NCBI GenBank assembly: GCA_938084455.1
Contig: CALKDX010000023.1
Location: 1-63,237, forward strand
Length of the DNA: 63,237 bases
Reading direction: 5' to 3'
DNA from: Candidatus Poseidoniaceae archaeon
GTDB taxonomy: Archaea; Thermoplasmatota; Poseidoniia; Poseidoniales; Poseidoniaceae
In this document: in pieces, positions 15 through 29,130 of the stretch
Layout of the letters: each line of letters starts with the position of its first letter
Position numbering within the stretch: position 1 is the stretch's first letter
Position numbers and translations under genes: made by a program
Notes under the pieces: generated by a model
What the model was told of the DNA's origin: nothing
The model's database searches: none
Seen by the model: only the letters and a program-made list of their open reading frames with translations

Positions 15-1079
15 TCATTCCTCTTCAAAATTCCAAAAGGATTCTTTTTCTGGTTCTTCAATATGGCCTATATCATCAAGATGCGAATCAAAATCAGGAA
101 GTTCATGCTTCCAACCGCCTGGCAATTTGGTTTTGTCTTCGATGATCTTCAACATGCGTTCTTGCCAAGCTTTTGGCTTTCGTTGCAAAATGTATGAGTA
201 AAGAACAGATGTCCGGATTTCTTCGTGCATGACGGTGTATCCTGTGGAAGCTTCAAAATTCATAGCACGAAGGAGATTGAATGCAGGGCGGTTGACATTT
301 CGGAACATGCGTCGACTGAAGCGCATACCGATTAGTACCGTTGCAAAGATAAGAAGTGTAGTGAGGCAAAAGCCTCCCCACCCCTGTTCAACAAACCTGT
401 TGGAGTACAACACTTCGAGAAGAAGCACTGGAACAGTTGTGATCATGAAGAGAAAACTCTCAGAAACGGGAGGCTTGTTCATTTTCATTTCAATGGCCCC
501 CCAGCCATTGTGGTGTTTTTCCCATGGTTTGAAAAATTCAGCACTGTCTTGCATTGATGCTGCCATGACCATTTTATGCAATTGTCCAATCTTTGCATAT
601 TGTTGGCCACTGACGTCCATGTTTTCCTCAGTGATGGCCTCGAGTCTGTACTTTGCTTCAGTGTACATCCCCATGTCCGCTAGGAGAGTCGCTTGTTCAA
701 CCAGCGGTGTGACTTCATATGGCATGTGATGTCGGAGTTGCTGCCACCAATCAAGCGCTTCATTCAGCAACCCCAGTTCATCGCTTAACAACCGTCCACC
801 AAGGAACCACATTGCCGTGCGGTCTGGCTCAAGTGCAATGATTTTCTTCACTGCCGCAAGAGATTTCGCAGCTTCCTTGAGTGTTGGACTTTGGCCTTTT
901 TTTGGCAGTGCTGATTCAGCACATAATTGCCAGGCATCGACGTGTTTCGGGTCAGCCTCCACGGCTAATCGGGCCGAGGCATAGGCTGCCTCAAGGTCCC
1001 CTTCGTCATAGGCTTCTACTGCGTCGAGGTAGTGATCTTCTGCACCCATCCCGACACACCTCATCGATTGCTCGATCAA
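15..1079 (-). CDS. TPR-like protein with two transmembrane helices, function unknown
   Basis: 354-aa ORF. N-terminal helical-repeat region (DAVEAYDEGDLEAAYASARLAVEADPKHVDAW). Two hydrophobic helices (FLFMITTVPVLLLEVL, FCLTTLLIFATVLIG). TTG at 1079 overlaps the upstream stop (TTGA); alternative ATG starts at 1064 and 1049. Ends -NFEEE, and its stop overlaps an ATG (18..16) of a further minus-strand gene that leaves the window. Confidence 0.6.
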   Translation of the reverse strand: MIEQSMRCVGMGAEDHYLDAVEAYDEGDLEAAYASARLAVEADPKHVDAWQLCAESALPKKGQSPTLKEAAKSLAAVKKIIALEPDRTAMWFLGGRLLSDELGLLNEALDWWQQLRHHMPYEVTPLVEQATLLADMGMYTEAKYRLEAITEENMDVSGQQYAKIGQLHKMVMAASMQDSAEFFKPWEKHHNGWGAIEMKMNKPPVSESFLFMITTVPVLLLEVLYSNRFVEQGWGGFCLTTLLIFATVLIGMRFSRRMFRNVNRPAFNLLRAMNFEASTGYTVMHEEIRTSVLYSYILQRKPKAWQERMLKIIEDKTKLPGGWKHELPDFDSHLDDIGHIEEPEKESFWNFEEE

Positions 1080-2389
1080 TCCTCTTTATCTCTGCCCATC
1101 AAGTCACGAGGGGGTCGGTTGTGAGCGTGTCCAGAGCCTTTACCGCGTGATTTACGGAATTCTCTAGGTTCCCTTCGGGGGGGGCGTGAATCTTCACCGC
1201 GTGGTTCACGTCGAGGAGGTCGTCCTTGGGCTCGGTCATGTGCGTCCCTGTCGCCGCCACCAAACCTGTCGCCGCCACGTCGGTCACCGCCACGTCGGTC
1301 GTTTCCACCAAACCTGTCGCCACCTCTTCGGTCACCACCACGTCGGTCGTTTCCACCAGACCTGTCGCCACCTCTTCGGTCGCCGCCACGTCGATCATCT
1401 CGGCGTGGCCCTCTGCTCTGGCCACCACTTCGGGGGGCACCACATCGGTTGCATTCTTGACGGAATGCGAAGTTTGAGTTGTTGCATTGTGGACAATCCC
1501 AGTCGTTGTCGTTGAAAATTTCACCACCACGTCGGTCGTTTCCTCTTCGGTCACCGCCACGTCGGTCGTTTCCACCAAACCTGTCGTTGCCTCTTCGGTC
1601 GCCACCGCGTTGATTGCGGTCTTGGAATGAACGTCGGTCGTCACGGCGTGGAGGTCGTCCCCCAGCGCCGCCGGCTTTTGGAGCACCGCACTTGTTGCAT
1701 TCCGTTCGCCAAGCAAAGTTGTCATTGTGGCACTTAGGGCAATCCCAGTCGCCATCTTTTCGATTGCTTGAGCGGTCGTTTCTCTCAAAGCGACCACCTC
1801 GTTGTTCACGGCCTTGGAACCCTCGGTCGTGCGATCTGCCTCCGCTGTTTCCTCTTGGTTCACCGCATCGGTTGCATTCATGACGGAAAGCGAAATTGTT
1901 GTTGTTGCATTTTGGACAATCCCAATCGCCACCATTGTTTGAGCGATTGTTTCGATCAAATCCGCCACCTCTGTCGTTTCGTTCAAATCGGCCACCGCGG
2001 TCGTTTCCTCTTCGGTCACCGCCGCGGTCGTTGTGTCGTCGGTTCTCGCGGTTGTTGTCGCGCCCCCGATCGCCAAAGTTTCGTTCTTCACGAACTTTTT
2101 TCGGACGAATGTTGACCTGAATTCCAACTAAGCCAGGAATGTCGAGTTTTCGATCGAGATGTGCAACGTGAACGAGCGGAGCGTTCGTGTTGCCTAACAC
2201 TGCGTCAACCTTTCCAATGTAATCGCCTGTGTCTTGGTTGATGATGATTGATTCTAGAGCTGGGGAGGAGCCAGTAAAGGACACCAACAGGCCACCTTCG
2301 TGACTCAAAGACTCAACGGTGCCTGCAAACATTACACTCACTCTCAATTTGGTGGGCCGACCTTCCCCTCTTGAGGGTGCCGGTAACAC
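1076..2389 (-). CDS. Gar1-like H/ACA RNP domain fused to an RGG/RD-rich region with three RanBP2-type zinc fingers
   Basis: The N-terminal ~80 aa (nt ~2099-2332) match the Gar1 pattern G.V.....G.L.V...P.L.S......IGKVD.VLG....P.V.V....LVG. Three exact W-x-C-x2-C-x3-N-x6-C-x2-C fingers follow: DWDCPKCNNNNFAFRHECNRCG (~1856-1930), DWDCPKCHNDNFAWRTECNKCG (~1679-1753) and DWDCPQCNNSNFAFRQECNRCG (~1433-1507). They are embedded in (G)GDRRG / RGG repeats. Start is either GTG 2389 or ATG 2332. Confidence 0.75.
   Translation of the reverse strand: MLPAPSRGEGRPTKLRVSVMFAGTVESLSHEGGLLVSFTGSSPALESIIINQDTGDYIGKVDAVLGNTNAPLVHVAHLDRKLDIPGLVGIQVNIRPKKVREERNFGDRGRDNNRENRRHNDRGGDRRGNDRGGRFERNDRGGGFDRNNRSNNGGDWDCPKCNNNNFAFRHECNRCGEPRGNSGGRSHDRGFQGREQRGGRFERNDRSSNRKDGDWDCPKCHNDNFAWRTECNKCGAPKAGGAGGRPPRRDDRRSFQDRNQRGGDRRGNDRFGGNDRRGGDRRGNDRRGGEIFNDNDWDCPQCNNSNFAFRQECNRCGAPRSGGQSRGPRRDDRRGGDRRGGDRSGGNDRRGGDRRGGDRFGGNDRRGGDRRGGDRFGGGDRDAHDRAQGRPPRREPRGEDSRPPRREPREFRKSRGKGSGHAHNRPPRDLMGRDKED
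1240..1400 (-). repeat. In-frame tandem nucleotide repeats encoding GGDRRGGDRFGGNDRR units
   Basis: Near-identical ~48-nt units (cgtcggtcgtttccaccaaacctgtcgccacctcttcggtcacc...) recur at ~1290-1390 and again at ~1540-1600. They lie inside the Gar1-fusion CDS. Confidence 0.7.
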
Positions 2390-2390
2390 C

Positions 2391-4448
2391 TCACTCTTCT
2401 CTTCCTCTGTTGGTCATTGCAGCGCCAAGCAGAGCGACCGTCAAGGTGGCGAGCATTGATACTGCAGGTAGGCCTTCTTCGACGGTCGTACCACCGTCAT
2501 CAATGATCGGTTCGTCTGAATTTGCGTATGGGTCTGGAACTTGGACTTGCATGGTCGTCATTGTCCCTGATTCATCAGTGGCAACGAGCGTGATGTCATA
2601 GACGGTCACAGGTGGGTTTTGGGAGGAGCACGACACAATGTTGACATCGATTTCCCAAACGATTCCAGAGCGGACAAAGTCGTTGGTTGAGTATCCACAA
2701 AGGGAGAGGCTCATCTCAACGTCTTCACCATCTGGATCCAAAACCTTTCCAGCAATTGTGAATTTGAGGTAACTTGCATCCCAAGTAGCGTTTGATCCAT
2801 CAAGGTTCACATCCACTTCAATCACAGGTGGTGCGCTTGGTTTGTTCAAACCGAAATCGAGCATGAAATTGTAATCAAGCATGCCGTTTGACTGAGCCTG
2901 GCCCATCACCATGACTTCGCCAGGGGCGAGTCCATCAAGTGGGAGTGCAAGTGTGGAGGCTTCGGAGGCGAGCGTTGCCATTCGCATTTCACCCATCATG
3001 GTCATTTGGTGGGCATGGGCGCTGATCGAAAGTTCGCTCACCACGCCGGTTGGCGTCACCGTGAATTCAACGGAATCACCAGATTCGGAAATGGTTGCCT
3101 GTGAAGTGAACGGTTGAGCGAAAGTCCAGTTTCGCGTCTCAATTGAAGATGCACCAAATGGGTCAATAACGCTGCATTCCGCATCGGCCGTTGCGTCGGC
3201 GGCCACATCATTAGGGCCGTCCAAAAACAACGTGCCTTCTTCGTCCAGTCCAGCAGTCCATTGCCCAACCCATTCTTGGTTTGCAAATTGACAATCGAGG
3301 GCCCAACCGCTGTCGTCAGTGGCCCACAATTCGGTCACTTCGCCAGCAACAAGAGTTCGTGTACCCACGGTGTAAGGGATGACGGTTCCATCAACAGGTG
3401 CGTCTGCCGTCCATTCCGGGATTTCGTTCGTTTCGGGGGCTTGGGTTGTGAAATCCAAGAACAAGTTTCGCAGGATTGGATATTCGCTTGAAGCATAGTT
3501 CACTTCTTGACTGACACGAAGTCGACCGTCAGGTAGGTATTCAGCTTCCGGAAGGGGCATGGCGCTGCTCTCGACATTATCGTCTTGGATTGAAGAATTG
3601 ACCAAGCGAAGACCTTGCAGTTGTGGGAAGGTCAGCACCAAGGCAGCAGAACTCATGTTGGTGACGTTGAGGGCGAGCGTGAAGTTCGAAACACCGCTGT
3701 TTGGCAGTTGGTCAAAACGGACGTTGTTGTTTTCACCCTCTTTGGTGAACATGAGGATTTGGAGGTCATCTGTGATGCTTACAGGCACCTCTTTGCAATC
3801 GCTCGAGGCGAGAAGGTCTTGACAATCTCGCTCCTCTGGGTGGTTTTCAGGTACGAGGTTTACCTCGTCCAGTGCGATACCCTCCTTAACGAATTCAAGG
3901 TCGTTCCAATCGACCCCGCCACGGTGTGGTAGACCTTCGCGGATCCCGATTCGTGTGTCCATGTCAGCGATGCATTCAGGGCCAATGGCTCGAACCGCTT
4001 CTCGCTCATCGGTGCTCATCCAAGAGTTGTTTCCTCCGGGTGTTCCGTCAAACAACTCATCGAGGTTCTCACGCACGGTAGCGGAATTGCTGCCGTTCAC
4101 ATAGGCAACTGCGCTCATCTGAGCTGTTGCCCAATCGTCACCAAGAAGGATGTCAAAGGAAGCGAAATTATAGTCGAACAGGTCCTCAAATTTGTAACCG
4201 GTGCAGTCCACATCGAGTGAACCTTGTCGGGCACTGGTCGGGAATTCAGTTGGTTCTGAAATTGCTTTTTGGTTCGTTACAGCGGTGGAGGCGATCATCA
4301 TCAGGAACAGGACGATGATGCTCAAAGCGATTGAAGTCTGGGCGAAACGATGTCTTGCCATGCTTTCTGCGGTGATGTCTTGTCTCAAAGACACTTCGCC
4401 TCCATCGCAACCCAAAGCAGGGTATTTACAACATTCTTTGATGTCCAC
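2391..4448 (-). CDS. Large secreted or surface-anchored protein, function unknown
   Basis: 685-aa ORF. N-terminal signal anchor (MARHRFAQTSIALSIIVLFLMMIASTAV). Long acidic, Thr/Ser/Asn-rich ectodomain. C-terminal hydrophobic helix plus basic tail (LPAVSMLATLTVALLGAAMTNRGREE). GTG 4448 lies 1 nt after the permease stop; alternative ATG at 4361. Confidence 0.65.
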   Translation of the reverse strand: MDIKECCKYPALGCDGGEVSLRQDITAESMARHRFAQTSIALSIIVLFLMMIASTAVTNQKAISEPTEFPTSARQGSLDVDCTGYKFEDLFDYNFASFDILLGDDWATAQMSAVAYVNGSNSATVRENLDELFDGTPGGNNSWMSTDEREAVRAIGPECIADMDTRIGIREGLPHRGGVDWNDLEFVKEGIALDEVNLVPENHPEERDCQDLLASSDCKEVPVSITDDLQILMFTKEGENNNVRFDQLPNSGVSNFTLALNVTNMSSAALVLTFPQLQGLRLVNSSIQDDNVESSAMPLPEAEYLPDGRLRVSQEVNYASSEYPILRNLFLDFTTQAPETNEIPEWTADAPVDGTVIPYTVGTRTLVAGEVTELWATDDSGWALDCQFANQEWVGQWTAGLDEEGTLFLDGPNDVAADATADAECSVIDPFGASSIETRNWTFAQPFTSQATISESGDSVEFTVTPTGVVSELSISAHAHQMTMMGEMRMATLASEASTLALPLDGLAPGEVMVMGQAQSNGMLDYNFMLDFGLNKPSAPPVIEVDVNLDGSNATWDASYLKFTIAGKVLDPDGEDVEMSLSLCGYSTNDFVRSGIVWEIDVNIVSCSSQNPPVTVYDITLVATDESGTMTTMQVQVPDPYANSDEPIIDDGGTTVEEGLPAVSMLATLTVALLGAAMTNRGREE

Positions 4449-4449
4449 T

Positions 4450-5280
4450 TCAGGGTTGCAATGTGTTCATGCGTCGAACGAACAAAGAACTTGGAATCAA
4501 GGTCCAGATCACGGCCATGACCCATGATTGCCATCCAGGGACACCTCGTTCAATCTCCGGCAATCTTGTTTCAAGCAAGTGATGATAGACACCGTTGGGC
4601 GACAAAAGGTCAAGTGAGCCTTCTAAAGCAACCCACTGCGCATCATTTTGCTCCCCTATGGCGACACCAGAAGCATACGCCACCATGGTGGTGAACAGCG
4701 CCCACAAAAACGTGAACAAAAACCACATTCCAATGCCAAAAGCAATCGCAGTTCCTTGGTCCTTCGTCCGTGAAGAGGCAAGCAATGTGAACACCACATA
4801 CCAAAACAGAATCAACGCTGTCGCCGTGAGATAAATCATCACGTCCCAAACCGAAGCCCATTCACCGAGGCGCCAACGAATGATGGCGACGGAGGCCAAA
4901 CTTAGGACGGCGACTGGGATGAAAATTGCTTGCCACATGCCGAGCATCAAAGCAATTGCCTGGTGGGTCCTTGGCATTGGTTGAGCGAGTCGTAATTCAA
5001 AGACGCCACTGGCACGGTCTCTGCTGACACCATCAAAGGCCAACAGCACACCGCACATCGTAGCGCCAAACACCACACCCAGACTTGCATAGAACATGAC
5101 TTCCATTGGCTGGTCTGGTTGATGGCCACCGGGTAAGACGATGTTAGGGTCTGAAAAACCCCAGGCCATTCCCGGCAAAAACAATACGAGAATAGGGAGC
5201 ATGATGAGCATTCGTGTTGATCCGATGCGGTCCCAAAATACCCTTTTCGCAAGGGATTGTATTCGCAGAACATCGCTCAT
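4450..5280 (-). CDS. ABC-2 family (NosY-like) transporter permease
   Basis: 276 aa with about six hydrophobic helices. Its ATG overlaps the stop of the upstream ABC ATPase (ATGA). Confidence 0.7.
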   Translation of the reverse strand: MSDVLRIQSLAKRVFWDRIGSTRMLIMLPILVLFLPGMAWGFSDPNIVLPGGHQPDQPMEVMFYASLGVVFGATMCGVLLAFDGVSRDRASGVFELRLAQPMPRTHQAIALMLGMWQAIFIPVAVLSLASVAIIRWRLGEWASVWDVMIYLTATALILFWYVVFTLLASSRTKDQGTAIAFGIGMWFLFTFLWALFTTMVAYASGVAIGEQNDAQWVALEGSLDLLSPNGVYHHLLETRLPEIERGVPGWQSWVMAVIWTLIPSSLFVRRMNTLQP

Positions 5281-6293
5281 TCTTCTTCACCCCCAATCGA
5301 TTTGTGAGGGAGCATTGCTGTTGAAGCAATTTCCAATCCGACCTCTTCGATGTTCATTCCAGTTGCTGCGCAAAGCAACTCCACAATTCCTGGGCTTTTC
5401 GGATTCCAAGAGTGTACCTCGATGCCACGATCTATGAATTTGGGTAATAGGTCAACACCAGAGTGGTCGAGGCGAATGGTCCAGGTGTCTTGTGCGGATT
5501 CTGATTCGATACGATGTTCACACCATGAAAGGTCTGGTAATTTGCCTGGACCAGAAACCAAAATCGAAGGTTGAAGTTCAAGAGAATCGGCAATCTCTGC
5601 TAGGGTTCCATTGGCAAGAAGTTGGCCTCTATGCATCAATGCAATTCGGTCGGTAATGGCCTCTAGGCCTTCGACTTGGTGTGAAGAAATGATGATTGAA
5701 ACTCCTTTGCTCTTGAGTTCATGCAGCAATTGAACAAAAGCAGTGGCTGCGACTGGGTCTAAACCGTTGAGTGGCTCGTCGAGCAGGAGGAATTTCGGCG
5801 AGCCAAGCAAGGCTGCAGCCAATGTCAGCCGTTGACGCATGCCTTGACTGAGATCTGAAAGATGAGCATTGGCTCGCTGACCTAAACCGACCAAACGCAG
5901 TAATCCATTGACTCGCTTCGCTGATGTCCCACGCATTTCGGCCAATTCCAACAGGGCGTCCTCCACAGATTGACGCCCCTGCCATCGTACCTGCTCTGGC
6001 ATGTGGCCGACAATGTTGCGAAGTGAATCGCTGTCAAGCTGGGTCTCTTTGGCGCTGGACGTCAGCATGAGTTTCCCATTTTGAATTGGTAAGACGCCCG
6101 CAATGGTTCGCAAAAGTGTGGTCTTGCCGGCTCCATTCGGCCCAACCAATCCAAGGATCTCCCCTGGGCGGAGGCTCAAAGTGATGCTGTGTACGCCTGG
6201 CCCGGGCCGTGTTCTCCATGGCTTGAGGCGTGAAGGATCGCTCATTCGATGACGAAATGTCACTTCTTCTAACCGAAGTGAGTCTCCCTCCAT
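5277..6293 (-). CDS. ABC transporter ATP-binding protein
   Basis: Walker A GPNGAGKTT, signature LSQGMRQRL, Walker B LLLDEPLNGLD, H-loop SSHQ. About 100 aa of C-terminal extension. Ends GGEEE. Confidence 0.9.
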   Translation of the reverse strand: MEGDSLRLEEVTFRHRMSDPSRLKPWRTRPGPGVHSITLSLRPGEILGLVGPNGAGKTTLLRTIAGVLPIQNGKLMLTSSAKETQLDSDSLRNIVGHMPEQVRWQGRQSVEDALLELAEMRGTSAKRVNGLLRLVGLGQRANAHLSDLSQGMRQRLTLAAALLGSPKFLLLDEPLNGLDPVAATAFVQLLHELKSKGVSIIISSHQVEGLEAITDRIALMHRGQLLANGTLAEIADSLELQPSILVSGPGKLPDLSWCEHRIESESAQDTWTIRLDHSGVDLLPKFIDRGIEVHSWNPKSPGIVELLCAATGMNIEEVGLEIASTAMLPHKSIGGEEE

Positions 6294-6384: not shown

Positions 6385-7284
6385 ATGAGCCAACTTTGGG
6401 ACCTTGTTCCAACAATGATGGTTCTGATTGGTCTTTTTATTGCCGTATGGTGGTTGCGGCGATCAACTGAGGAGGGTGAGTCAAAGGTTGCTGTACGCAC
6501 CGTATTAGGGCCGATGGGGCTCGAATCAGCTGTTGGTTGTTTAGTGCTCATGTGGATTCTTCCTTGGGGGTTTATTTTGCTGGTGCCGGGAATTCTGATT
6601 CTTTCCTACCTCAGCCCTGCCGGGCGCGTCGCTTGGGGTGAGCATCGAGTTCAACGCCTCACTTTGGTGGTTTGCATGACCGCCATGGTGCTCATTGCAG
6701 GTTTTGTTCCAGTGTCTGAGCCTGTAGCCCCGAAGGAATGGGGTGAACCTTTGCTCAAAGAGAACGCAAATGCGCCGATTTATCCTGCAAGTGAGCAATA
6801 CACCTGGCTCATGCTTCCTGAGGATGCGGGTTTGGATGTTGAAATTGTTCAATCCATCACCATGCGTCTGCCCTATCAATACGGTCCACTTGGAGCGGCA
6901 TCAAGTGCATTTGATCTCTCTGAACTCATCGGGATGGAGCAGGGGCGTTTGCGCCAAGCAATTGAGTTGCTTGATCAGCAGACTCCAGGACCGAGCCTCG
7001 ATCCAGATGAAATGGAAATGGTTCCAATCAGTTCAGAATCCAAGCATCGCTACCTCTCCACATCAGCAGATGTGGATGTATCGGTGGAGGTTCGGGTGTA
7101 TGAGTTGCGAAGTCTATTGTCCAGTTCTGAAGAAGGAACCCGCGTCGGCGAGGTATTGTGTGTAGCGACACCGACGTTCGGAGGTGAACTCCAGATGCTC
7201 GTGGTTGTCCGACCAATCCTCCACCCGGGGCTTTCCTCAGATCGCTTTGCAGAGTCGCTCGTTATCGAATGGCTTGCTGTTTGA
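6385..7284 (+). CDS. Membrane protein, function unknown
   Basis: The ORF is open from 6292, but the ATG at 6385 starts directly at hydrophobic helices (MSQLWDLVPTMMVLIGLFIAVWW). Four predicted helices are followed by a soluble C-terminal half. Confidence 0.5.
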   Translation: MSQLWDLVPTMMVLIGLFIAVWWLRRSTEEGESKVAVRTVLGPMGLESAVGCLVLMWILPWGFILLVPGILILSYLSPAGRVAWGEHRVQRLTLVVCMTAMVLIAGFVPVSEPVAPKEWGEPLLKENANAPIYPASEQYTWLMLPEDAGLDVEIVQSITMRLPYQYGPLGAASSAFDLSELIGMEQGRLRQAIELLDQQTPGPSLDPDEMEMVPISSESKHRYLSTSADVDVSVEVRVYELRSLLSSSEEGTRVGEVLCVATPTFGGELQMLVVVRPILHPGLSSDRFAESLVIEWLAV

Positions 7285-7325: not shown

Positions 7326-7375
7326 TTTAGGGCAGCCTAAACTATATGTATGGAGGGGATTTAGGGCGGCCTAAA
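7326..7375 (+). promoter_or_regulatory. Two copies of a 16-bp palindrome, TTTAGG-N4-CCTAAA; candidate metalloregulator operator
   Basis: TTTAGGGCAGCCTAAA (7326-7341) and TTTAGGGCGGCCTAAA (7360-7375) lie 34 bp apart. The first abuts a T-rich TATA-like stretch (7316-7329). Both are upstream of ATG 7391. Confidence 0.5.
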
Positions 7376-7390
7376 CCGGGGCGCAAAACC

Positions 7391-9508
7391 ATGCACACGA
7401 ACACGATAAAAACCCTGATCATGACCTTAATCATTGGAACCACAGCACTTGCAGGCTGTTTAGAAAATGAAGACGCTTCAAGCAATGACTCCAACCTTGA
7501 GTCGCTTGTTGTTGCCTTTAGCATCAAAGACGACTACACCAATGTTGATGAGAATCCTCAACGCTTTGCCGACTACCTCGGTCAGGCTCTCAACATGGAT
7601 GTTTCACTCTATCCGATCGATTCAGAGGGCGCTGCAATGCAAGCCCTTCGCTTCGGCAATGCTGACATCGCTTTCATGGATGGCGGAGCAGCGTGGGTTG
7701 GCTGGCAACAGTACGGCCTTGATGCTCTTGCAGCTGACCAAAAATCGGATGGAAGGACATACTACAGCGCACACGCTGTGGTTCTCAAGGACTCTGAAAT
7801 CGCTCAGGCCCACCTTGACGATGACCCCACAACAGACCCATTCTCATTGATGGCAGGCAAAACCTCGTGCCACACAGGCTGGCTCAAATCGGCAGGTATG
7901 CTCCTTCCAATGGGCTTCCTTATTGGCAACGGATATGCGAATGTGATCGGCGATGCGAATGATGTCGAATCTCTCCGCTCAACGATTACTAATTTCTTCA
8001 ATGAAGACGCAAGCATTCCAGACTCCGGAACACCGTACTACTCGTACAGTGGAGCTGTGAAATGCCTCTCTGAAGGTGTTGGCGATGTGGCCTTTGTTAA
8101 AGATTCCACGATTGCTTCTTACTGTGGAAACGAAGACGCATCCATAAACGAGGCTTGGTGCTTACCTGAATCGGATTACATCTTGCTTCCATCGTATGGA
8201 AACGCCCCATCACACCCGGTGATGTACAACCCGGATACTTCCGATGCAACCACAATGGCACTTGTTCAAGACGTGCTGGTTGACATGGCCAACACCGAGG
8301 ATGGCCAATCGATCCTCGAAAATGTATTGAACACCCCAGCTATTTCTGCAACCACTGCCGCCGAACACCTCTCTTCGTACGGCAACCTGATTGAAGACGT
8401 CCCTGGAATCTCTGCATACTACGACACTAAATTCTCGATTAACGATTCCATCGAGCCGACCATCTCGAACATCCGAATCGCCTTCGAAATGAAAGACGAT
8501 TATGAAAACCCAGCCGAGAATCCACAAGTCTTGGCTGATTTCATCGCAGAACAAACCGGAGTGACCGTTACGCTCTACCCAGTCGCTTCTGAAGGAGCAA
8601 TCATCGAAGCTCTCCGCTTCGGTAATGCAGACATCGCATTCATGGACGGCGGTGCTGCTTGGGTCGGTTGGAAAGAATACGGGCTTGCGGCAATGGCTGC
8701 TGACCTGAAGTCTGATGGGCGAACTCATTACGATGCACATGCCGTTGTTCTCAACGGCTCGGACATTGCCAATGCTTACCTCGATAACGATTCTTCCACT
8801 GATCCGTTTGCAATGATGGAAGGCAAGACTTCGTGCCACACTGGCTGGCTCAAATCAGCGGGCATGTTGCTTCCAATGGGCCACCTCATCTCCCAAGGCT
8901 ACGCTCCAGTCGTCGGACCGCAAGACGACATCGAATCATTGCGAGATACGATTACCTCTTTCTTTAACGAAAACGCAAGCATTCCCGAATCCGGAACACC
9001 GTACTCCTCCTATTCAGGAGCAGTCAAGTGTTTGACTGAAGGCGTTGGCGATGTGGCTTTTGCAAAGGACTCCACCGTTGCCTCTTACTGTGGCAATGAA
9101 GATGCAAGCGATAATGCGGATTGGTGTTTGCCGGAATCCGAGTACATCCTCTTGCCATCCTATGGATCTGCACCATCTCACCCCGTGATGTACAACCCAG
9201 CTACGCTTGATGTTCAAACGAGGACTGCAATCCTCAACGCTCTCTTGGCATTGAACAACGAGATGTACGTCGAGGACTATCCAATGCAAGGTCAGAATTA
9301 CACTGGATGCTACTCGATGGTTTCCCATCAAGTTGACTCGACTTCTCCACAAGAAGCATGTGGCGATCAAATCTTGTCCAATGTGTTGAACACGGGTGGC
9401 TTGGTTGAGGTCAACTCACAAGAACATCTTGGCAGCTACAGCAACCTCATCAGCGCCATTCCTGGCATCTCATCGTACTTCGATTCGAAGTATGAAATTG
9501 CGGAGTGA
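7391..9508 (+). CDS. Bilobal transferrin-like substrate-binding lipoprotein of an ABC importer
   Basis: Lipobox signal peptide (MHTNTIKTLIMTLIIGTTALAGC). Two homologous lobes each carry ADIAFMDGG, T(Y/H)Y.AHAVVL, GKTSCHTGWLKSAGMLLPMG, YSYSGAVKCL.EGVGDVAF.KDST and APSHPVMYNP, which parallel the transferrin ligand motifs. It is followed by PhnC/PhnE-type genes. Confidence 0.8.
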   Translation: MHTNTIKTLIMTLIIGTTALAGCLENEDASSNDSNLESLVVAFSIKDDYTNVDENPQRFADYLGQALNMDVSLYPIDSEGAAMQALRFGNADIAFMDGGAAWVGWQQYGLDALAADQKSDGRTYYSAHAVVLKDSEIAQAHLDDDPTTDPFSLMAGKTSCHTGWLKSAGMLLPMGFLIGNGYANVIGDANDVESLRSTITNFFNEDASIPDSGTPYYSYSGAVKCLSEGVGDVAFVKDSTIASYCGNEDASINEAWCLPESDYILLPSYGNAPSHPVMYNPDTSDATTMALVQDVLVDMANTEDGQSILENVLNTPAISATTAAEHLSSYGNLIEDVPGISAYYDTKFSINDSIEPTISNIRIAFEMKDDYENPAENPQVLADFIAEQTGVTVTLYPVASEGAIIEALRFGNADIAFMDGGAAWVGWKEYGLAAMAADLKSDGRTHYDAHAVVLNGSDIANAYLDNDSSTDPFAMMEGKTSCHTGWLKSAGMLLPMGHLISQGYAPVVGPQDDIESLRDTITSFFNENASIPESGTPYSSYSGAVKCLTEGVGDVAFAKDSTVASYCGNEDASDNADWCLPESEYILLPSYGSAPSHPVMYNPATLDVQTRTAILNALLALNNEMYVEDYPMQGQNYTGCYSMVSHQVDSTSPQEACGDQILSNVLNTGGLVEVNSQEHLGSYSNLISAIPGISSYFDSKYEIAE
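7507..9505 (+). repeat. Internal tandem duplication (lobe 1 ~7507-8470, lobe 2 ~8471-9505)
   Basis: Long runs are conserved at protein level and partly at nucleotide level, e.g. ggcaaaacctcgtgccacacaggctggctcaaatc vs ggcaagacttcgtgccacactggctggctcaaatc. Confidence 0.85.
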
Positions 9509-9657
9509 ATTCACAGAGTCTTCCTTGATTGAAACTCGTCGGCACCTAAGAGGATTTTACATGAAATCAACATTAGGGAAAAATCTTGCCTCATACCGTA
9601 TTGGTGGGGGCAACCGTTTGAAAAAGACCTGCTTGCAGGACTAACAGAGGAGATGCT

Positions 9658-10344
9658 ATGAGCGAGGGCGTCGTCTTATCCCTAAATGACTTGGTCATTG
9701 GTTATGATGAGCCTCTGTCAGAGCCTATTTCACTGGAAGTAAAACCAGGGGAAATTATTGCAATTCTTGGACCTTCTGGGATCGGCAAAACAACGCTTAT
9801 CCGTACGATTGCGGGGCTCGTCCGCCCTCTTCAAGGGGATTTTGACCTTCATGTCAAACGGCGCGGTGGCCTTGGCTACATCCCCCAACGCCTCGGCCTT
9901 GTGCGCCATGCAACAGTTGCTCACAACGTCTCATTGGGAGCGAGGATGAATGTCCCATGGTCGAGAACGATGTTCCAAGAGCGAAACGAACGAACACAAG
10001 AAGCGATTCGAACACTCGGAATTGAAGAGAAAGCTGGTGAACCTGTCCGTCGTTTATCCGGTGGTCAGCAGCGCCGTGTTGCAACAGCCAGAACTTTGGC
10101 TCAGCGGCCCGAATTGATGCTTGCTGATGAGTTCCTAGGTGAACTGGATCAGCACAACGTGGATCTTGTTCTTGGGGCCGTTCATGAGTTGGTTGAGAAG
10201 GGAACAGCTGTCATTATGGTGGAACATCATGAGGACAACGCGAAAGATTTTGCAACACGGATTTGGGAAATAAAAAACAAGCGTTTCTCAGACATGTCAA
10301 TTGAGGAGTGGGAACTCCACTCATCGGCGGGGGAAGAGGAATGA
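9658..10344 (+). CDS. ABC transporter ATP-binding protein (PhnC-like)
   Basis: Walker A GPSGIGKTT, signature LSGGQQRRV, Walker B MLADEF. SD agaggag lies upstream. Ends AGEEE, and its stop overlaps the next ATG. Confidence 0.85.
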   Translation: MSEGVVLSLNDLVIGYDEPLSEPISLEVKPGEIIAILGPSGIGKTTLIRTIAGLVRPLQGDFDLHVKRRGGLGYIPQRLGLVRHATVAHNVSLGARMNVPWSRTMFQERNERTQEAIRTLGIEEKAGEPVRRLSGGQQRRVATARTLAQRPELMLADEFLGELDQHNVDLVLGAVHELVEKGTAVIMVEHHEDNAKDFATRIWEIKNKRFSDMSIEEWELHSSAGEEE

Positions 10345-11213
10345 AGTACCGATTATTTGGTGCCCTTTTCATTCTCTTTTTCTTAGCATGGCGTACGCTT
10401 GATGGGTTGGTTGAAGGGGATTGGGGCCGTTTGGAAGGCGGACTTTCGAACCTTGGTGTGTTCTTCTCTGAAAGCATGTGGCCTCCCAATTGGAGCGTGC
10501 TTGAGGCCCGTTCATATCCAGTGTGCGAACAGGACATCGAATTCTTCTGTTCCGTTGGTTATCTTGGCATGATGGAAACGCTCAAAATTGCATTTGTCTC
10601 AACGGTTTTAGGTTTTGTAGGAGCAATCACCCTCTCTTCACTTGCTGCTCGAAACTTGATGCCTCTGTCCATCGCACTCCCGGTCCGTATCTTTCTTTCC
10701 GCAGTACGGAGTTTACCAAGTCTTATTTGGGCCATTTTGTTTGTCATAGTGATCGGTTTTGGGCCGCTCTCAGGCGTTCTTGCGATGACGTTCTACACCA
10801 TTGGCTACCTCGGAAAGTTGCAGTACGAGGTGTTTGAAGGCATGGCCAATGACCCGCTCGAGGCGGGCAGAGCCATGGGTCTTTCTCGCCCCAGCATTCT
10901 GTTGAACATTGTCATTCCAGAGAACAGCAATCATCTGCTAAGTCAGTTGATGTTTATGTTTGAGTACAACGTTCGCCATGGAACAGTGATTGGAATTGTG
11001 GGGGCGGGTGGCATTGGCTATTACATCAGCACATACCTAAAGTTCCTACAATATGACAAGGTATTCGCTTTGCTGATCATCATTTTTGTTGTGGTCGTGG
11101 TCATCGACCTTCTCTCGCTTATGATTCGCTCATTCGTTAACGAAGAGGGCGATGTGAGAAAGCCAACATGGTTGAACACGATCATTGCAGCGAAGAAAAG
11201 ACGAACTGAATGA
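10341..11213 (+). CDS. ABC transporter permease (PhnE-like)
   Basis: Six hydrophobic helices. EAA-type loop (EAGRAMGLSRPSILLNIVIPE). ATG 10341 overlaps the upstream stop (ATGA). The ORF track starts earlier, at 10308. Confidence 0.8.
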   Translation: MKYRLFGALFILFFLAWRTLDGLVEGDWGRLEGGLSNLGVFFSESMWPPNWSVLEARSYPVCEQDIEFFCSVGYLGMMETLKIAFVSTVLGFVGAITLSSLAARNLMPLSIALPVRIFLSAVRSLPSLIWAILFVIVIGFGPLSGVLAMTFYTIGYLGKLQYEVFEGMANDPLEAGRAMGLSRPSILLNIVIPENSNHLLSQLMFMFEYNVRHGTVIGIVGAGGIGYYISTYLKFLQYDKVFALLIIIFVVVVVIDLLSLMIRSFVNEEGDVRKPTWLNTIIAAKKRRTE

Positions 11214-11254
11214 CCATTCGGTCACCGTACGACCTTCAGTCTACGATGTGTGAA

Positions 11255-11494
11255 TCAATTTTGGGTGGAAGAGGCCGTTGGGCGAATTCCTATGCCAGTC
11301 TGAGTGTTCTTCGGTTGGGCGTTGTACACGAGCAAACCCAAAACACCACACACGAGCGGTGCAAATAGGAGAGGTAAGAGCACCGGCAAGAGTTGAACAA
11401 AGGCAGCTACGGTGATCCCAAGTATGCCCAGAACATACCCGATTAAGTTCGTTGTTGAAAACAGTTTTTTTGCGTTTGACAGAAGTCCGTCCAT
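11255..11494 (-). CDS. Small two-helix membrane protein
   Basis: 79-aa ORF with two clear hydrophobic helices. No competing ORF overlaps it. Confidence 0.4.
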   Translation of the reverse strand: MDGLLSNAKKLFSTTNLIGYVLGILGITVAAFVQLLPVLLPLLFAPLVCGVLGLLVYNAQPKNTQTGIGIRPTASSTQN

Positions 11495-11688
11495 GAGAAA
11501 TAAAACGAAAGGGAGGTATATGACGCTGTGTTTTTCAATCTCCCAAAGTACAATTGCATGTATACCCCTAATAATCGAGGCACTGCTTGTTAATTTTAAA
11601 CGGCCAATTATACTAAAACTTTAGAATTTTACATCCTGCCATGCCTTTCGAATGAAACACCAAAATACCTACCTATTTAGGAGATAAT

Positions 11689-12279
11689 GTGTCGGAATCC
11701 CATACCTTGTTATCGAAGGTCATCCACTGGAGTTTCGTTCTCCTCTATGGTTACGGGATTGTTAAACAAATTGATGATTTGTCACAACTCGAAGATACGG
11801 GCTTGTTGTTGTTTGAAGTGATGTTTGCGAGCGTATTCCTAATTCTTGTGATCATGCGTTACCTCTACATGCGGCGGTTTGAGACGTTCCTGGGCGCTCG
11901 TGAACCGGTCCCGATAGTTCATACCTATCTTGCTAAAACTGTCCATGCTGGAATGTATCTCTGTTTGATTCTTCTTCCACTCTCGGGGTTAATGATCGCA
12001 GGATTGTTCACTCAGGGGCACACCAATGAGGATGGATTCGTGCTTGGTCTTGTTCTTGCGGTGCATGGATTCTTTGCAGACCTCAGCTATGTCTTAATCG
12101 CAATTCACGTTGGAGCCGCCCTTTTTTCCCGCTTGAAGGGGGATGGAATCTGGGCATCGATGGTTCCTGTACTGAAAGACACTGGTCCTACAAACAATTC
12201 TTTCATCAAGACCCTCTCATCAAATGAGGAGAAAATCTACGCGAGAGCCGAACAATTCTTTGCCTCAAAAAAGCAATAA
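11689..12279 (+). CDS. Cytochrome b561-like (CybB-family) membrane protein
   Basis: Four helices with His in the positions typical of the family (VIHWSF, VHAGMY, AVHGF, IAIHVGAALF). GTG start is preceded by taggag. Confidence 0.5.
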   Translation: MSESHTLLSKVIHWSFVLLYGYGIVKQIDDLSQLEDTGLLLFEVMFASVFLILVIMRYLYMRRFETFLGAREPVPIVHTYLAKTVHAGMYLCLILLPLSGLMIAGLFTQGHTNEDGFVLGLVLAVHGFFADLSYVLIAIHVGAALFSRLKGDGIWASMVPVLKDTGPTNNSFIKTLSSNEEKIYARAEQFFASKKQ

Positions 12280-28542: not shown

Positions 28543-29130
28543 ATGGTCAAAGGATGCCCTGCATTTGTTCTCGCAGCGGGAGCAAGCGTTCGTTTGGGTC
28601 AGCCTAAGGCCTTGGTTCCTGTTGCTGGTACGACCCTTGTGGGTCTTGCAGTTCGTCGCTTGATTGCAGCGGGATGTTCTCCTGTGTACGTCATTACGAG
28701 GCAGTCGTTACAATTTGAAGTGATGCTTCAATGCGAAGGAGCCACTGTTGTGGTCAACAAAGATCCTGAACAAGGGCGAACGGGCACCTTGCAACAGGGC
28801 CTCCTTGCTGCGATGGGTGACACAGGACGCCTCCCTCGCCGAGTGATCATCGCTCCTGTGGACCGCCCAGGATGGGATGTGACGCATGTCAGGCAATTGC
28901 TGGGCCAAAGCACAACTTCGACTTTATCATGCAATGGGAAGCTCGGTCACCCTTTGATTGTCCATTCTCCCGATGTTGAAGCAGTGCTCGCAGCACCCCC
29001 TGAAACCCCACTGCGTGATCTTATTGCACCGGACTATGTTGAGGTCAATGCCCCTCATTTGAGCCTTAACATCGACACTCGAGAAGATCTTACGCTCCTC
29101 GCATCCATTGATTTTGAAGTGGATTTTTGA
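28543..29130 (+). CDS. MobA/MocA-like molybdenum-cofactor nucleotidyltransferase
   Basis: N-terminal LAAGASVRLGQPKAL motif. About 195 aa. Adjacent to an XdhC-family gene. Confidence 0.7.
   Translation: MVKGCPAFVLAAGASVRLGQPKALVPVAGTTLVGLAVRRLIAAGCSPVYVITRQSLQFEVMLQCEGATVVVNKDPEQGRTGTLQQGLLAAMGDTGRLPRRVIIAPVDRPGWDVTHVRQLLGQSTTSTLSCNGKLGHPLIVHSPDVEAVLAAPPETPLRDLIAPDYVEVNAPHLSLNIDTREDLTLLASIDFEVDF

Follow-up and report, generated by a model that had tools for sequence, protein, structure and literature searches.

A two-lobed transferrin relative in an ABC transporter operon of Marine Group II archaea and its probable role in iron uptake

The stretch of DNA analyzed here, referred to as the window, comprises 63,237 nt of contig CALKDX010000023.1 (assembly GCA_938084455.1) from a Candidatus Poseidoniaceae archaeon, a member of the Poseidoniales (Marine Group II, MGII). 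On its plus strand lies a gene for a two-lobed substrate-binding lipoprotein resembling the transferrins of eukaryotes, preceded by a promoter-like element set between two copies of a palindromic operator and followed by genes for the ATPase and permease of an ATP-binding cassette (ABC) transporter. The binding-protein gene was delimited from the open reading frame (ORF) translation, hidden Markov model (HMM) matches, and homologue alignment, and the features of the locus are as follows.

7327..7340, no strand: operator copy 1, TTAGGGCAGCCTAA, directly 5′ of the TATA-like element; extended palindrome TTTAGG-N4-CCTAAA
7343..7352, plus strand: TATA-like element CTATATGTAT, putative archaeal promoter core, between the operator copies
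7361..7374, no strand: operator copy 2, TTAGGGCGGCCTAA, ∼17 nt 5′ of the ATG, near the expected transcription start
7391..9508, plus strand: gene for the transferrin-like substrate-binding lipoprotein, 705 aa, two-lobed
Residues 1–23, plus strand: signal peptide with lipobox LAGC (residues 20–23); Cys23 is the predicted lipid-anchored N-terminus
7496..8455, plus strand: lobe 1, residues 36–355 (HMM, lobe-lobe comparison, alignment, AlphaFold model)
8456..9505, plus strand: lobe 2, residues 356–705 (HMM, lobe-lobe comparison, alignment)
9308..9361, plus strand: Cys-bridged module CYSMVSHQVDSTSPQEAC, residues 640–657, within the lobe-2 insertion
Lobe 1 site: D97, Y125, Y219, and H275, predicted Fe ligands; T162 and K166, anion site
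Lobe 2 site: D419, Y447, Y541, and H597, predicted Fe ligands; T484 and K488, anion site
Lobe 1 Cys pairs: C160/C225 and C245/C257
9658..10344, plus strand: ABC transporter ATP-binding subunit; PhnC is the top NCBIfam match, with the metal-type ATPases AztA and MntA close behind
10308..11213, plus strand: PhnE-type ABC permease, as called mechanically from a GTG at 10308

The mechanically called ORF of the binding protein spans 7346..9508 (+), but the real start of the gene is the ATG at 7391, because homologues begin at the equivalent position and the ATG at 7346 lies inside the TATA-like element, upstream of operator copy 2. Translation of the permease likely begins at the ATG at 10341, in overlap with the stop codon of the ATPase gene. 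Lobes 1 and 2 are 61% identical to each other, with an insertion of ∼31 residues in lobe 2. All the motifs quoted in the original prediction are present in the translation, namely ADIAFMDGG and APSHPVM in each lobe, the Tyr-ligand motifs TYYSAHAVVLKD in lobe 1 and THYDAHAVVLNG in lobe 2, the anion-site motif GKTSCHTGWLKSAGMLLPMG in both lobes, the second-Tyr motif YSYSGAVKCLSEGVGDVAFVKDST in lobe 1 with an equivalent in lobe 2, and the lipobox at residues 20–23. The predicted setting, a lipoprotein binding protein in a PhnC/PhnE-type ABC operon, was likewise borne out by Pfam and NCBIfam matches and by conserved synteny, the gene order binding protein-ATPase-permease being kept in a 74%-identical relative.

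Taken singly, each lobe matched the Pfam family Transferrin (PF00405; 76.7 bits for lobe 1 and 77.8 bits for lobe 2, cut-off 20.3), and in the same lobe-by-lobe search, which had been proposed as a check, Phosphonate-bd (PF12974) was also passed (83 and 70 bits). Among all PDB sequences, the best 60 phmmer matches of lobe 1 were lactoferrins and transferrins only, with a lactoferrin best (E = 2e-30), and the quoted motifs paired with lactoferrin residue for residue, including YSGAFKCL...GDVAFVK. A profile of 64 archaeal family members matched melanotransferrin (1.3e-62) and isolated transferrin N-lobes (∼1e-37); its best 60 PDB matches were all transferrin-family chains, with no PhnD-family chain among them. 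Both NCBIfam PhnD models failed (equivalog TIGR03431, 68.3 vs. a cut-off of 261.1 bits; TIGR01098, 94.8 vs. 112.05 bits), and E. coli PhnD scored 22.7 bits by BLASTP and 23 bits on the archaeal lobe HMM. Judged by its sequence, the protein is a true relative of transferrin and not a generic PhnD, as had been predicted. Database labels read ‘PhnD/SsuA/transferrin family’ or ‘phosphate/phosphonate’ binding protein, with the Transferrin domain already flagged; one source annotation is ‘ABC-type phosphate/phosphonate transport system substrate-binding protein’, and one JGI record was auto-named ‘melanoma-associated antigen p97’.

An AlphaFold model of lobe 1, made with a diverse 64-sequence alignment, reached a pLDDT (predicted local distance difference test) of 96.2 and a pTM (predicted template modeling score) of 0.90; a whole-protein model from 15 sequences of 74–93% identity had a pLDDT of 38.5 and was discarded. 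With the lobe-1 model, Foldseek retrieved transferrin lobes at a probability of 1.0 and TM-scores of up to 0.69, best with open forms. This structural check returned the predicted transferrin fold, of two subdomains that close about a hinge, but it did not separate transferrins from the PhnD family; since the PhnD-family proteins PtxB and AioX match about equally well, the fold match was taken as one of class only and was not used as discriminating evidence. Sequence and site residues discriminate the two families; the fold does not.

The columns of the binding site were taken from a MAFFT alignment of 95 lobes from archaea, unicellular Holozoa, green algae, and animals. At the six functional columns, both window lobes read D/Y/T/K/Y/H and the N-lobes of pig transferrin and lemur lactoferrin read D/Y/T/R/Y/H, the mammalian D/Y/Y/H and T/R residues being the iron ligands and carbonate anchors, respectively. 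The possibility that these residues would fall in non-equivalent columns had been set out beforehand as a point on which the original prediction could fail; the alignment upholds their equivalence in both lobes, together with the SCHTG/KCL-type Cys pair. Across 64 archaeal sequences, down to 31% identity, Y125, T162, Y219, and H275 were invariant and D97 and K166 were ≥90% conserved, and the site residues rank among the most conserved of the archaeal family. The replacement of the anion-site Arg by Lys was present as described but did not hold up as a peculiarity: it also occurs in fish, shark, amphioxus, and brittle-star lobes and in nearly all ichthyosporean lobes, and because it is so common in fish, invertebrate, and ichthyosporean lobes, it is no anomaly.

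The operator pattern occurs in the window as two exact matches and one match with a single mismatch, vs. 0.40 expected by chance; the near-match, at 28594, lies inside a MobA-like gene and was treated as chance. A survey of 80 related genomic loci (the best 80 of 383 GTDB loci, 843 kb) placed 127 of 134 exact sites within 300 nt 5′ of the binding-protein gene, in 69 loci, giving a density of 5.4/kb upstream of that gene vs. 0.0085/kb elsewhere (∼630-fold enrichment). Of the other seven sites, six lie where the binding-protein gene ends, before the ATPase gene, and the seventh is at +4499 in locus L041. The operator stands at the same position in related loci, with the extended consensus already given for copy 1, in the layout operator, TATA, 12–20 nt, operator, 15–25 nt, ATG, and most MGIIa loci have a CTATATGTA/CTTTATGTA TATA-like element between the operator copies. 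Such a layout would be typical of archaeal repressors that block access to the promoter. The operator half-sites equal those of the DtxR/IdeR iron box consensus TTAGGTTAGCCTAACCTAA (PMC7762939).

In nine related loci (MGIII-type plus one MGIIb), a DtxR-family gene lies immediately upstream in divergent orientation, and the operator-bearing intergenic region is common to both genes. The adjacent regulator has 216 aa and the full DtxR architecture (PF01325, PF02742, and a FeoA-like domain). Pfam confirmed the DtxR matches, and direct evidence comes from the aligned ACRMEH/ACRWEH motif: the regulators keep Met10, Cys102, Glu105, and His106, although their ancillary metal site is not conserved. 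Met/Cys/Glu/His is the iron-selective primary site of DtxR/IdeR, as opposed to the Asp/Glu of the Mn-sensing MntR. Taken together, the half-sites and the adjacent genes suggest that a DtxR-type repressor may pair with this operator. In one MGIII-type locus (L042), the DtxR-family gene (5112–5762, −) stands beside a flavodoxin gene (4227–4730, +); in the same locus, a sub-threshold HmuY-like (haem-binding) match was found at 8649–9575 (+), 3′ of the permease gene (22 bits vs. a cut-off of 27).

The same operator is associated with a second protein family. In two loci, L086 and L087, that carry a two-lobe paralogue devoid of the iron ligands, the gene directly upstream of the paralogue encodes a lipoprotein with a Pfam Fea1 domain (63 bits, cut-off 25). 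Pfam describes Fea1 (PF07692) as ‘low iron-inducible periplasmic protein’, and the domain defines the family of algal Fea1 and the diatom phytotransferrin ISIP2a (PMC7676907). The two genes in L086 are:

L086:4576–5835, plus strand: archaeal Fea1-like lipoprotein gene (Pfam Fea1)
L086:6001–8136: gene for the ligand-less two-lobe paralogue, following the Fea1-like gene and without an operator in front

In L086, the operator precedes three units, specifically the Fea1-like gene, a ligand-bearing single-lobe transferrin-like gene, and the ATPase gene, but not the ligand-less paralogue, which serves as an internal control favoring a link to iron. A metagenome scan recovered 168 Fea1-like loci, of which the best 80 (L088–L167) were used for counting. 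Each of the archaeal Fea1-like genes with enough upstream sequence had the operator within 150 nt 5′ of its start (76/76), and the transferrin-like binding-protein gene came next after the Fea1-like gene in 48 of 62. Because it precedes both Fea1-like and transferrin-like genes, the operator marks a regulon that joins two unrelated families, each tied elsewhere to Fe(III) capture. Archaeal Fea1-domain lipoproteins behind a TTAGG-N4-CCTAA operator are common in marine metagenomes, and no description of them was found in the literature searched.

A further feature is common to the two families. The Cys-bridged module of the window protein (pattern C-Y-x-M-V-S-H-x10-C) is confined to lobe 2 and was found in ∼113 MGII proteins of ∼700 aa, in four copies in a three-lobe form (P0026), and in two copies in the C-terminus of an unrelated archaeal Fea1-like lipoprotein; none was found in the eukaryotic and single-lobe proteins checked. 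That two surface proteins of the iron regulon carry the same module suggests a common docking or anchoring role.

In total, 840 relatives were detected; the best 120 listed are proteins of ∼700 aa, and those with a named source come from Poseidoniales. A scan of one genome per GTDB species, using a profile from an 8-sequence alignment, yielded the 383 loci mentioned above, the best 80 of which come from genomes of MGIIa, MGIIb, and MGIII, among them a complete MG-II chromosome of 2.06 Mb, with two in metagenome-assembled genomes (MAGs) labeled bacterial. Those two, L066 (MAG labeled Yoonia sp.) and L079 (Salinimicrobium sp.), have a Poseidoniales-type binding-protein gene and an MGII-type upstream gene, with an exact operator copy in L066 and only a degenerate one in L079, and are probably mis-binned archaeal contigs. 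An exhaustive HMM search of 1.84 billion representatives returned only 421 proteins at E ≤ 0.001, so the family is narrow and ordinary PhnDs were not reached. Besides the two-lobe forms and the three-lobe P0026, single-lobe forms occur in MGIIb, MGIII, other Thermoplasmatota, and one Halobacteriales MAG. Five two-lobe paralogues (P0122, P0123, P0125, P0126, and P0128) have lost the iron ligands but kept the ABC operon; the columns of P0122, for example, read D/Y/T/K/F/D in lobe 1 and A/H/T/D/P/E in lobe 2. The ligand-less paralogue might, for example, serve the Fea1-like protein as a docking partner.

Among eukaryotes, the nearest relatives are multi-lobe proteins from the unicellular Holozoa Ichthyophonus, Creolimax, Sphaeroforma, Abeoforma, Chromosphaera, and Corallochytrium. 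Per lobe, holozoan protists scored 120–210 bits on the archaeal lobe HMM, green algae 76–101, and animals 56–117, and the protist lobes averaged 32% identity to archaeal lobes; the protist lobes also have the Lys, and the second Cys pair (C245/C257) is common to archaea and unicellular Holozoa only. A phylogeny with transferrins and PhnD had been called for. In a neighbor-joining tree (a simple distance method, with long branches removed and 300 bootstraps), archaeal lobes split from all eukaryotic lobes in 298/300 bootstraps and Metazoa plus green algae from the rest in 300/300, with the holozoan protist lobes in between. E. coli PhnD proved unusable as a root, its position being long-branch-driven and unreliable. 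A prokaryotic origin is tentatively favored, because every deeper relative is a binding protein of prokaryotes and the archaeal members still have the role in an operon that would be ancestral. The predicted independence of the lobe duplication from that of animals is supported, since the window lobes are 61% identical and the archaeal lobes group together, apart from the eukaryotic ones. The multi-lobe transferrins of unicellular Holozoa and green algae examined were P0131, P0140, P0141, P0146, P0163, and P0300; Ichthyosporea and Corallochytrium have two- to five-lobe transferrins with full ligand sets, and the green algae Bryopsis and Caulerpa have up to seven lobes, which group with animal transferrins.

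Compared with the eukaryotic transferrins (serotransferrin, lactoferrin, ovotransferrin, and melanotransferrin), the window protein is alike in sequence, fold, the two tandem lobes, the Asp/Tyr/Tyr/His columns, the Thr plus Lys/Arg anion site, and the SCHTG/KCL Cys pair. It differs in being an archaeal lipoprotein of an ABC importer operon, whereas the eukaryotic proteins are secreted glycoproteins taken up by receptor-mediated endocytosis, and thus falls outside the classical definition of a transferrin as a eukaryotic secreted protein with receptor-mediated uptake. It has 11 cysteines vs. ∼30, and carries an extra Cys pair otherwise seen only in unicellular Holozoa, as well as the lobe-2 Cys module. 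The unicellular holozoan transferrins have the full ligand set, the Lys, the C245/C257 pair, and a PhnD-like N-terminal strand (RFAF/RIAL) in common with it, but possess eukaryotic signal peptides, are Cys-rich, and lack an ABC operon. With the PhnD family (E. coli PhnD, PtxB, HtxB, and AioX; PF12974), the fold class, the PhnC/PhnE-type partners, and the role as a prokaryotic lipoprotein or periplasmic protein are common ground, but the window protein has two lobes and an iron-repressor-type operator, and E. coli PhnD reads G/Y/D/T/S/H/A/K/-/D at the ten ligand and Cys columns. FbpA, FutA, and SfuA bind naked Fe(III) through Tyr, His, and acidic ligands with a synergistic anion, feed an ABC importer, and are iron-repressed; although functionally alike, they have a single lobe, another ligand arrangement, and another permease family, and no family of this type was among the Pfam or NCBIfam matches of the window protein. 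The phytotransferrin ISIP2a/Fea1, which captures Fe(III) at the surface of marine microbes in a carbonate-dependent manner (PMC7676907), is proposed as a functional analogue; the window protein has no Pfam Fea1 match at E up to 0.1, and the gene upstream of it in the window is not Fea1-like.

That upstream gene and the other neighbors of the operon are listed here.

6385..7284, plus strand: conserved membrane-anchored protein, directly 5′ of the binding-protein gene; no Pfam family
11689–12279, plus strand: cytochrome b561 gene (PF01292, prokaryotic), between the permease gene and a small conserved minus-strand gene
1076–2389, minus strand: archaeal protein with three RanBP-type zinc-finger repeats (PF00641, 91 bits), kept in the syntenic loci of relatives

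The gene at 6385..7284 has a counterpart directly 5′ of the binding-protein gene in 41 other loci (27–96% identity), and its product evolves much faster than the binding protein (36% identity where the binding protein has 74%); the promoter and operators stand between the two genes. In L086, this position is occupied by a Fea1 gene, and the upstream gene was therefore tried as a diverged Fea1/ISIP2a homologue, an idea rejected on a BLASTP E of 6.7 and the lack of a Pfam hit. Cytochrome b561, whose gene follows a gap of 475 bp (11214–11688), was likewise rejected as a ferric-reductase partner: it is found only in the closest relative, L005, and is missing from the other syntenic loci, including that of the 74%-identical relative. 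No Rfam family and no tRNA were found in the window.

The interpretation that best accommodates these observations, to which we assign a probability of roughly 0.75, is that the gene encodes the extracellular capture protein of a DtxR-controlled Fe(III)-carbonate importer. The protein would be lipid-anchored outside the archaeal membrane through Cys23, and each transferrin-type lobe would, in the manner of animal transferrin, close on one Fe(III) ion held by one Asp, two Tyr, one His, and a synergistic carbonate, the latter anchored by Thr, Lys, and the N-terminus of a helix. Once loaded, the protein would dock on the PhnE-type permease, with the PhnC-like ATPase driving release and import, and under sufficient iron an Fe(II)-sensing repressor of the DtxR/IdeR family, bound to the two operators that bracket the TATA box, would stop transcription. 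Fe(III) with carbonate as the ligand is suggested by the site residues, and the suggestion gains from the DtxR-type operator, the adjacent DtxR gene, and the co-regulated Fea1-like gene. A transporter labeled ‘phosphonate uptake’ is thus most likely an iron uptake system, because a transferrin relative with intact iron residues stands behind an iron-repressor-type DNA switch.

Several observations weigh against this interpretation. The permease qualifies in NCBIfam as a bona fide PhnE (TIGR01097, 222.6 bits, above the cut-off of 216.7), a family whose known substrates are phosphonate, phosphite, and phosphate rather than metal cations; since these are phosphorus oxyanions, the putative passage of iron through a PhnE-type permease is the weakest link of the mechanism. 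The ATPase, for its part, scores on the AztA and MntA models nearly as high as on PhnC and falls below the PhnC cut-off (TIGR02315, 123.7 vs. 266.1 bits) despite that model being its top match. The lobes also pass Phosphonate-bd, and in the Foldseek search the phosphite-binding PtxB and the arsenite/phosphate-binding AioX rank level with transferrins. The 14–16-bp palindrome differs from the 19-bp DtxR box in its center and arm length, and because no DtxR gene lies within the window, the regulator is linked to this lineage through operator similarity only. Finally, some transferrin-family proteins that keep most of the ligands bind other things.

Three other explanations were considered. A PhnD-type protein delivering phosphonate, phosphite, or phosphate to PhnCE, with transferrin-like residues that are ancestral or serve oxyanion binding, would account for the Phosphonate-bd scores (70–83 bits per lobe), the PhnE match above cut-off, PhnC as the top ATPase match, the ‘phosphate/phosphonate’ annotations, and the PtxB and AioX structural neighbors, and it would fit the MGII literature, in which phosphonate transport is a core trait (Tully, 2019; PMC6336850). 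It is nonetheless judged improbable, given the failure of both NCBIfam PhnD models and the ∼23 bits of E. coli PhnD, a complete metal-ligand set kept in both lobes over hundreds of species, and an iron-repressor-type operator together with an adjacent Fe-type DtxR gene and co-regulation with Fea1-like genes; in addition, no phosphonate catabolism genes (C-P lyase, phosphonatase) were found among the ORFs scanned, which cover roughly 0–32 kb of the window. The importer might instead be DtxR-controlled but carry another substrate, such as Mn(III), Ti(IV), Al(III), Ga(III), or Fe(III) with another anion or an organic chelator. Transferrin structures do exist with Ti(IV), Cr, oxalate, or malonate, the DtxR family includes Mn sensors and the archaeal regulators lack a conserved ancillary site, and the anion site has Lys, not Arg. 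Set against this are the Met/Cys/Glu/His primary site of the regulators, which is of the iron type and not the Asp/Glu of MntR, the tie of the Fea1 family to low iron, the frequency of Lys in iron-binding transferrin lobes of fish and invertebrates, and the general consideration that Fe is the scarce, biologically demanded hard cation of oxic seawater, and such a substrate is considered unlikely.

The least credible explanation is that an archaeon recently captured a eukaryotic transferrin, or that the gene is a contaminant introduced by assembly or binning. In its favor, other known transferrins come from eukaryotes, the excessive length of the PhnD branch leaves the tree unrooted in practice, and two matches fall in the bacterially labeled MAGs L066 and L079. 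Contamination is, however, excluded by 383 GTDB loci that include a complete chromosome and show conserved archaeal synteny, and is at odds with the lipobox, the ABC partners, and the archaeal-style promoter and operator; the contigs L066 and L079, with their MGII-type upstream gene, themselves look mis-binned. As for capture, the archaeal lobes are nested in no eukaryotic group (298/300), one-, two-, and three-lobe forms extend over Poseidoniales, other Thermoplasmatota, and a Halobacteriales MAG, and the deeper relatives PhnD, PtxB, and AioX are all prokaryotic binding proteins; an ancient transfer from a eukaryote to an archaeon is nonetheless conceivable.

Beyond the role of the gene itself, a broader two-part proposal is offered tentatively, as one that we consider possible but rather less than an even bet when both parts are taken jointly. 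The archaeal proteins would represent a surviving prokaryotic stock that gave rise to eukaryotic transferrin after the gene had passed to an early holozoan, the multi-lobe proteins of unicellular Holozoa being intermediates, and the MGII ‘phosphonate transporter’ would be the main high-affinity, carbonate-dependent Fe(III) uptake system of these archaea, within a DtxR-type regulon that also holds archaeal phytotransferrin-like (Fea1) lipoproteins. A PhnD-like origin of transferrins was reportedly proposed by McQuaid et al. in 2018; no description of an archaeal transferrin or of its iron regulon was found in the literature searched, although that study may include such sequences as its ‘phosphonate-binding periplasmic proteins’. 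To our knowledge, transferrin has been treated as a eukaryotic invention with prokaryotic roots only distantly visible in PhnD; if true, the proposed ancestry would bridge PhnD-like binding proteins and the transferrins of animals, and a complete transferrin iron/carbonate site in a prokaryotic ABC setting opens the transition from PhnD to transferrin to direct testing.

Marine Group II archaea rank with the most abundant heterotrophs of the surface ocean, and we know of essentially no description of their iron acquisition. Reading this transporter as an iron uptake system would change inferences on the phosphorus and iron cycles drawn from metagenomes and metatranscriptomes, and a carbonate requirement of the kind reported for diatom phytotransferrin would make iron uptake by the archaea sensitive to ocean acidification. 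The conserved operator, in turn, provides a handle for mapping an archaeal iron regulon in uncultured organisms.

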